Positions 4,616-5,350 of a stretch of DNA of 40,165 nt are shown piece after piece. Source of the stretch: a virus. Lineage: Duplodnaviria > Caudoviricetes. Under the pieces are notes generated by a model that was given only the letters and a program-made list of their open reading frames with translations, was not told the origin of the DNA and searched no databases. The stretch is taken from positions 1 through 40,165 of IMG/VR virus record IMGVR_UViG_3300018757_000006; one strand, 5' to 3'. The position numbers and the translations under genes are program-made. How positions within the stretch are numbered: position 1 is the first letter of the stretch; each line of letters starts with the position of its first letter.

Positions 4616-4888
4616 ATGAGATACGACTTTCAAGCTGCTGAGCAGCGTATCGCGGAACTGGGTCTGATTTACGCAAGGATGAAGGACAAGCACCAAGAGA
4701 ACGGCACCTGGGATTGGTGGATCGCAACTCAGATCGATGAGATCCAGTTGGAGATGGCGGAGGCAAAAAGCAAAATGGCCGTCGGGCAGGACGGCCATCA
4801 AGCGAACGTTAAGACAAATGTTCTTTTTCCGATTATACCTGCTTGGAAGTTGCAGAGCAAGGAGACGGTACAGAATGGGAGCCTATAA
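4616..4888 (+). CDS. Hypothetical phage protein
   Basis: ATG at 4616 just after the previous stop. The 3' half overlaps antisense unit 2. Confidence 0.55.
   Translation: MRYDFQAAEQRIAELGLIYARMKDKHQENGTWDWWIATQIDEIQLEMAEAKSKMAVGQDGHQANVKTNVLFPIIPAWKLQSKETVQNGSL
4765..4860 (-). ncRNA. Candidate antisense micro-transcription unit 2
   Basis: Minus strand TTGCTC(4860-4855)-17 bp-TATAAT(4837-4832), then terminator ATGGCCGTC-CTGCCC-GACGGCCAT-TTTGCTTTTT. Predicted RNA about 60 nt. Confidence 0.55.
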
Positions 4889-5030
4889 AGAGATGTCAGT
4901 ACCAGACGAATCGGACGAGCCGATTGACCATTGCAATGATTGCGGCAAAGGCATCCATGAAGGGCAAAAGGCATGGGTGGTGGACGGCGAGATCTACTGC
5001 AACAGTACCTGCTACAAAAATGCAAAATGA
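4875..5030 (+). CDS. Small putative zinc-binding protein
   Basis: MGAYKEMS...CNDCGKGI...YCNSTC (CxxC...CxxxC) with an AGGAG RBS. Confidence 0.65.
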   Translation: MGAYKEMSVPDESDEPIDHCNDCGKGIHEGQKAWVVDGEIYCNSTCYKNAK

Positions 5031-5125
5031 GTCGAAACCAGGGCTCCAAGCCCTCGGTCGTAGGGAGTTGACCGTCCCTGCCTGATGACCGCGAGAGCGG
5101 ATCAGTACGCTGATGACAGGTCTAC
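5031..5125 (+). ncRNA. Type II hammerhead ribozyme variant with a two-hairpin insertion
   Basis: GTC-GAAAC(5031-5038); stem III 5037-5044/5050-5058; GTC cleavage triplet 5057-5059; stem I GTAGGGA/TCCCTGC; core CTGATGA 5082-5088; GAC 5115-5117 closes stem II; loop I GTTGACC pairs with the 3' tail GGTCTAC (pseudoknot). Confidence 0.8.
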
Positions 5126-5227
5126 ATACGCGGGGGCCAAAACGGGGAGCAGCCATCGGAGCTGTAACGGCTGGCAGAGAGGTTGGGCTGTCGGCGACCA
5201 CGCAAATACAGGAAGGGAGGTGTGGGT

Positions 5228-5350
5228 GTGGGAGAAATAGCCGACATGGTCCTATCTGGCCTGTTGTGTCAAGTGTGTGGAGCTTATATGGACGATTTCA
5301 AAGAACCTGGGCATCCAAGAACTTGCGAAGATTGTAAGGAAGAAAAGTAA
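5228..5350 (+). CDS. 40-aa zinc-finger microprotein (not in the ORF track)
   Basis: GTG start after GGAGG: MGEIADMVLSGLLCQVCGAYMDDFKEPGHPRTCEDCKEEK, with two CxxC pairs. Confidence 0.72.
   Translation: MGEIADMVLSGLLCQVCGAYMDDFKEPGHPRTCEDCKEEK

Follow-up and report, generated by a model that had tools for sequence, protein, structure and literature searches.

A two-hairpin insert splits the core strand in a recurrent natural variant of predicted hammerhead ribozymes

Background

The described hammerheads closest to the locus reported here are the type II pseudoknot hammerheads (RF02276; PMC3088659, cited, as are the other papers below, for the portions available to us), which have the same strand order, a full core and a short stem II, and whose loop I/3' tail pseudoknot and intergenic phage setting are also those of the locus. 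The window, by which we mean the whole 40,165-nucleotide stretch of viral DNA that was analysed, differs from RF02276 in that 26 nt forming two hairpins lie between A9 and G10.1. Type II motifs and small core insertions were reported by Perreault et al. 2011, without the two-hairpin form in the available part of that paper (PMC3088659), and, according to PMC10085705, no more than 1-2 nt separate CUGAnGA from its neighbouring stems in any known hammerhead alignment. The plus hammerhead of CChMVd has the same insertion point and is active with one unpaired base there (PMC3705267). The family of the window differs from it in having 24-40 nt that form two helices, and not one base.

A pseudoknot hammerhead with a helix IV was reportedly first described by Weinberg et al. 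2015. Like the window locus it is natural and has a pseudoknot as well as an additional helix (Zhan et al. 2024, PMC11300833), but its pseudoknot helix replaces helix II, with helix IV as its stem (PMC11300833), whereas the window keeps stem II, has two free hairpins interrupting the core strand and has no A-rich linker. The non-circularly permuted SGC and CSG hammerheads (Eckert et al. 2023, PMC10085705) resemble the window in having a canonical core in a non-standard architecture, but they reorder intact blocks, whereas the window keeps GSC and its type III relatives SCG, with block C split; none of the orders SGC, CSG or GCS was found, the window reading G, S, C. Variants with additional helices are mentioned, citing Weinberg 2015, Eckert 2023 and Forgia 2023, in the available part of PMC13725137; no such extra-helix variant was found in the available parts of Forgia 2023 (PMC10162972), and the available parts of PMC5737381, PMC12192606, PMC8370743, bioRxiv 2024.01.20.576352 and bioRxiv 2026.09.16.752053 hold nothing on a two-hairpin layout. 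The layout was undescribed in our literature searches, outside the scope of which lay Weinberg et al. 2015 and the supplementary alignments of Eckert 2023.

Two hairpins between core and stem II in a type II hammerhead motif

A previous reading, made from the sequence only, had proposed a complete type II hammerhead in the window, and the sequence and its homologues bear out each part at the position given there. The stretch 5031-5125 contains the core, three predicted stems, a predicted pseudoknot and a predicted double hairpin joined without linkers, as follows:

5031..5033, + strand: stem II 5' strand GUC, ending in C11.1 (sequence, type II alignment)
5034..5037, + strand: core G12 A13 A14 A15.1 (GAAA; sequence)
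5037..5044/5050..5058, + strand: stem III hairpin of 8 bp with a bulge at C5055 and a loop of 5 nt
5057..5059, + strand: GUC triplet, predicted cut 5059/5060 (from the hammerhead consensus)
5060..5066/5075..5081, + strand: stem I hairpin, 7 bp with one U-G; loop I 5067-5074
5082..5088, + strand: core C3-A9, CUGAUGA (sequence)
5089..5100, + strand: inserted hairpin 1, 4 bp with a GNRA loop, beginning directly after A9
5101..5114, + strand: inserted hairpin 2, 5 bp; its 5' strand 5101-5105 alternatively pairs with core 5082-5086
5115..5117, + strand: stem II 3' strand GAC, starting with G10.1 (type II alignment)
5119..5125, + strand: 3' tail pairing with loop I 5067-5073 (pseudoknot), 6 of 7 pairs, one U-U

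CUGANGA, GAAA and an NUH triplet are thus all present, with all three stems (I, II and III) around the core and the pairs A15.1-U16.1 and G10.1-C11.1 in place, and as in type II both ends lie in stem II while loops close stems I and III. The direct joint of core to stem II (a three-way junction with at most 1-2 extra bases) is absent, and because the 26-nt insert splits the core strand from stem II we regard 5031-5125 as a variant hammerhead. The earlier reading had the insert in the right position between core and stem II but gave it about 25 nt, where it measures exactly 26 (5089-5114); likewise the motif does abut a stop codon, following TGA 5028-5030 directly and not after the gap of 1 nt that had been described. 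Both hairpins are present as proposed, but the UACG of hairpin 2, which had been counted as a stable tetraloop, is closed by G-C and not by C-G. A C-G closing pair makes UNCG loops extra stable. Homologues, described below, support the identity of the ribozyme, the cut site, the pseudoknot and both hairpins; stem III differs in sequence among relatives with its pairing maintained, and the pseudoknot at 5119-5125 is in the same register as in relatives that have no insert.

The minimum-energy structure for both 5031-5118 and 5031-5130 was the hammerhead fold with the two inserted hairpins, while with longer flanks other folds won in the folding program, which has no means of scoring the pseudoknot. 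A less strict version of the architecture, with neither pseudoknot nor hairpins required, arose in 1 of 300 shuffled windows, and 0.15% of 2000 shuffles of the insert gave a pair of abutting hairpins with 4 bp or more each. A second CUGAUGA (5110-5116) was rejected as an alternative core on inspection of the sequence, having no stem I register and no G10.1 partner. We consider 5031-5125 to be probably a pseudoknot hammerhead of type II whose 26-nt two-hairpin insert is predicted to make a four-way junction at A9/G10.1, with a predicted cut after C5059 that likely needs no trigger; self-cleavage of the 5031-5125 RNA is likely.

Genomic setting

The 40-kb record that makes up the window is a temperate phage, with genes for an integrase, an antirepressor, a DUF2800 nuclease-like protein, an ssDNA-binding protein and DNA polymerase A. 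Its sole Rfam match is a tRNA at 278-350, which adjoins the integrase gene and is probably the attachment site of the phage. As the DNA polymerase A is 81% identical to its counterpart in Paenibacillus phage Pd_22F, a Paenibacillus-like host is likely. The ribozyme lies between two small + strand ORFs, with the same-strand gene run leading to the replication genes, and a consensus scan gave a weakly located promoter-like match upstream of the ribozyme, on the - side of the repressor region. The neighbouring features are:

4875..5030, + strand: small Cys-rich ORF of 51 aa, without a Pfam match; its stop codon abuts the ribozyme
5126..5205, + strand: conserved, structured-looking element directly 3' of the ribozyme, without an Rfam match
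5228..5350, + strand: small ORF of about 40 aa, its start inferred from the ribosome-binding site 5216-5220

Homologues of the upstream ORF lie 5' of the ribozyme in at least 11 loci. The element at 5126-5205 (seen in the window and in L001, L036, L038, L039, L117, L121, L126, L176 and L200) has an invariant segment containing GAGAGGU and stems that apparently covary; in its relatives Rfam gave just weak antisense scores to BsrC. It is present without a ribozyme in L036, L038 and L039, and in L200 an HNH gene (1018-1488, - strand; also in L202, L204 and L209) lies between it and the ribozyme.

Type II relatives with and without the insert

The only match in the phage collection was Brevibacillus phage Emery, where the motif is intergenic and the core is joined directly to stem II. 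Orthologues without the insert were found at the same gene junction in Emery, L128, L117, L121 and L176; L128 has both flanking genes in common with the window and is 72% identical to it over 800 nt, and across 5030-5088 the identity of L176 is 90%. The same 26-nt insert, with a compensatory change, is carried by L200, L202, L204 and L209, to which the insert-less L176 is nearly identical up to the core. L209 has a mismatch in stem III.

A viral scan for type II motifs gave 113 loci. Among 81 distinct motifs whose stem I has 4 bp or more, the partner of stem II follows the core at offset 0 in 61, at offset 1 in 8, at offset 26 in 3 (the window, L127 and L131), and is elsewhere or absent in 9. 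A stop codon abuts stem II in 55 of the 81, a count for which no null was computed. A dependence of cleavage on ribosome termination at 5030 had been suggested for the window, but all 13 of 13 subfamily members have this adjacency with the insert or without it, so that it is not tied to the insert and any coupling to a terminating ribosome would belong to the family as a whole.

In an alignment of 11 type II sequences 97.4% of cells were paired and 6 pairs were changed on both sides (0 of 500 shuffles), this being a closely related set in which two of the three double changes in hairpin 2 come from the divergent L492 alone. Four central pairs of the pseudoknot are kept in 11 of 11 sequences, one of them changed on both sides. 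L492 (Pelotomaculum propionicicum) carries its type II two-hairpin form at 1440-1545, after a Mu Gam-like gene, and has a degenerate GAAA/GUC region, so it is possibly inactive. In L120 and L145, 3-4 canonical type II hammerheads stand in tandem, and each of them sits just 5' of a ribosome-binding site and a short gene.

Recurrence in type II and type III hammerheads

The two-hairpin insert was found in 23 distinct sequences from 10 lineages, including both type II and type III forms, with 24-40 nt in its two helices. A search for no more than the core and hairpin 1 gave 15 loci; 8 of them proved to be hammerheads, 4 being type II kin of the window and 4 type III. In a type III scan, 24 of 86 loci had a stem I of at least 5 bp and a stem III of at least 3 bp, criteria which disregard the segment from core to GAAA and are thus blind to the insert; three abutting hairpins were present in 23 of these 24 blind-picked motifs and in 3 of the 62 remaining loci, those 3 being hammerheads with one extra base before the core. 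Seven of 26 double-hairpin parses were excluded since a canonical parse was also available, leaving 19 distinct sequences that form 8 lineages at 72% identity, and the addition of L439, L447 and L471 (type III two-hairpin forms with one extra C between stem I and core) and of L492 gives the 23 in 10. Shuffled inserts yielded double hairpins at a mean rate of 0.003.

The covariation check proposed in the sequence-only reading came out strongly for hairpin 2, which is 4-11 bp long: its pairs 1-4 form in all 19 of the 19 sequences, each position showing 3-5 types of pair, and its pairing was matched by 0 of 5000 shuffles (8 lineage representatives). Hairpin 1 has 3-6 bp, varied loops and two invariant first C-G pairs, but the conservation of those two pairs and of the core is not independent evidence because the search patterns largely fixed them. 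No open frame runs through 18 of the 19 two-hairpin sequences. We conclude that the two-hairpin insert defines, by sequence, a recurrent natural hammerhead variant with a split core strand; the conserved zero-linker double hairpin common to type II and type III hammerheads, a predicted four-way junction, had been overlooked in the first reading of the window.

Several other parses of the insert were considered and set aside. Placing the insert at position 7, with its 3' GA as G8/A9, was rejected in view of the covariation of hairpin 2 and the absence of that ending from most type III members; a reading of hairpin 1 as the genuine stem II was disfavoured in type II only, where the pseudoknot register is unchanged; a GNRA loop is not a requirement, other loops and stems of 5-6 bp having been found; and L382, a candidate single-hairpin insert, is instead a canonical Rfam match. 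L203 (near 1501) and L345 (near 301-373) are type III motifs with one 4-bp hairpin and a 5-nt linker at A9/G10.1. A test for pairing of loop I with loop II gave no significant result among type III members (856 of 5000 shuffles).

The two-hairpin insert was seen in 0 of 61 loci in a type I scan, in 0 of 120 in a metagenome type II scan (57 of 64 parts covered), in none of the 18 distinct hammerheads among 121 loci of an insert-agnostic type II scan (20 of 64 parts covered), and in 1 of 110 in a scan of cellular genomes (L492, with a degenerate core). By the type I, metagenome and genome scans the form is rare outside viral contigs. Our own scan of 80 DUF2800 neighbourhoods gave no convincing hammerhead, and Rfam, run on 20 of the 80, gave no match.

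Detection by Rfam models

No hammerhead match was obtained for the window in Rfam, with nothing relevant at E values up to 10, and neither the window nor L200 matched RF02276 at the gathering cut-off. The comparison of sequences with and without the insert, which the first reading had recommended, gave a mixed outcome: the insert-less L176 passes Hammerhead_II (37.3 bits against a cut-off of 37) where the window and L200 are unmatched, but the insert-less copy of phage Emery is likewise unmatched by the Rfam hammerhead models, and because that copy is missed too the Rfam blank is not evidence against a ribozyme. None of 11 two-hairpin loci (including the window, L197, L198 and L200) reached an Rfam hammerhead cut-off, some giving weak Hammerhead_3 scores of about 23 bits against a cut-off of 48.5.

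Alternative explanations

The window locus had been proposed to be a two-state switch, in which the 5' strand of hairpin 2 sequesters the core and a protein, a ligand, the ribosome or the speed of transcription controls cutting. The dual pairing of AUCAG 5101-5105 on which this was based is a genuine thermodynamic alternative in the window sequence: the two folds are mutually exclusive and, scored for secondary structure only, lie at -37.4 and -36.9 kcal/mol, and the anti-core pairing takes up 41-53% of the ensemble for 5031-5118 and 5031-5130, reaches 97% when the chain ends at 5106 and is dominant for ends 5106-5114. With any pairing register allowed among the 23 sequences, 3 of 10 lineages have core pairing runs of at least 5, where 0.42 would be expected (P 0.006), and in two lineages hairpin 2 has a single compensatory change, after which the anti-core pair can still form as a wobble. 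However, P becomes 0.053 without the lineage of the window, which had been selected for anti-core pairing, and the expectation of 0.42 is too low, as any member could score and the lineages may have common ancestry. Such runs are absent from 7 of 10 lineages, and in the nearest insert-bearing kin the anti-core fold comes out 3.5 kcal/mol less favourable, with a probability of 0.03-0.04; anti-core pairing is predicted at 0.80-0.97 for L425, L453, L459 and L470 and at 0.52 in the window, but 0.03 in L127/L131 and about zero in most other members. Insert-less relatives show similar predicted core pairing (0.43-0.58) because the program ignores pseudoknot and tertiary energy, no effector was identified, and fast exchange by branch migration would be expected because the two competing CUGAU strands are identical. 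That nearest-neighbour folding has the core of the window bound up in the anti-core helix for roughly half of the time does count against our preferred reading of an intact core. Taken together, the lineage distribution and the insert-less core pairing imply that anti-core pairing is not needed for the variant but may slow some members, and we think a regulated switch unlikely. We are similarly doubtful that the inserted arm has been co-opted, here and in at least two other lineages, as a strand-exchange brake that times the processing of the early replication operon. An 8-nt direct repeat (5082-5089 and 5110-5117) spans the core and hairpin 2/stem II, and it would fit the speculation that an ancient duplication of the core gave rise to the 3' strand of hairpin 2, the anti-core partner having arisen as a by-product.

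Were the insert instead to cripple or silence the ribozyme, the RNA could have been kept as a slow or non-cutting element, for example a protein-binding or stabilising one, and this would agree with the assumption of Eckert et al. that block C is uninterruptible (PMC10085705), with the degenerate members L492 (core) and L209, and with the ribozyme being dispensable, since L036, L038 and L039 match the downstream region only. GAAA, GUC and the stems are nevertheless intact in 7 of 8 viral matches though they had formed no part of the search pattern, and the zero-linker geometry, for which a dead core would have no use, recurs in 10 lineages and two permutations and argues against silencing, so that we hold this to be distinctly improbable. 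We give very little credence to the idea that the insert spread because it confers immunity to a homing endonuclease whose target is ribozyme DNA lacking it: an HNH endonuclease gene does lie directly after the ribozyme in L200, L202, L204 and L209 and not in their insert-less kin, with L176, near-identical to this group up to the core, having neither insert nor gene, but the gene is confined to that one lineage, the window has the insert and no HNH gene, other genes lie downstream in L492, L197, L198 and L203, and the two-hairpin geometry would be left unexplained.

A proposed mode of action

In the preferred reading, that of a hammerhead with an intact core, the two zero-linker helices in the A9-G10.1 strand would turn the junction into a perfect four-way junction. 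Helices in four-way junctions stack in pairs, and hairpin 1 may stack on hairpin 2 as a side arm, with stem II remaining stacked on the A9-G12 pair and the pseudoknot register being preserved. A stacked side arm of this kind would explain why hairpin count and zero linkers are constant despite variable sequence and length, and it fits both the unchanged type II pseudoknot register and the tolerance of a single base in 8 of 81 motifs. In solved hammerheads an A9-G12 sheared pair lies next to G10.1-C11.1 (PMC11300833). An extra C or G at A9/G10.1 is strongly detrimental in CChMVd (PMC3705267), and the base after A9 in the window is a C, which counts against an intact core, but this C is paired. 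Anti-core pairing in the window is likely to act as a transient or partial brake and not as a regulated switch.

The predicted cut after C5059 would part the small upstream genes from those for the DUF2800 protein, the ssDNA-binding protein and DNA polymerase A, and the downstream cleavage piece would carry the insert at its 5' end. Processing of polycistronic transcripts has been proposed for phage ribozymes, a proposal itself unproven (PMC6765202), and by analogy the window ribozyme likely processes an early polycistronic transcript.

Implications

The hammerhead core has hitherto been treated as an uninterruptible three-way junction (PMC10085705), and a naturally occurring four-way version, in type II as well as type III scaffolds, would provide a new site at which whole domains can be plugged in, making the A9/G10.1 step a new attachment point for aptamers in ribozyme engineering. 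It would also mean that standard searches overlook a class of phage ribozymes. The near-identical natural pairs, of the L200 family or the window with L176, make the effect of the insert on cleavage rate directly testable, and such pairs may offer a handle on what phage ribozymes do.
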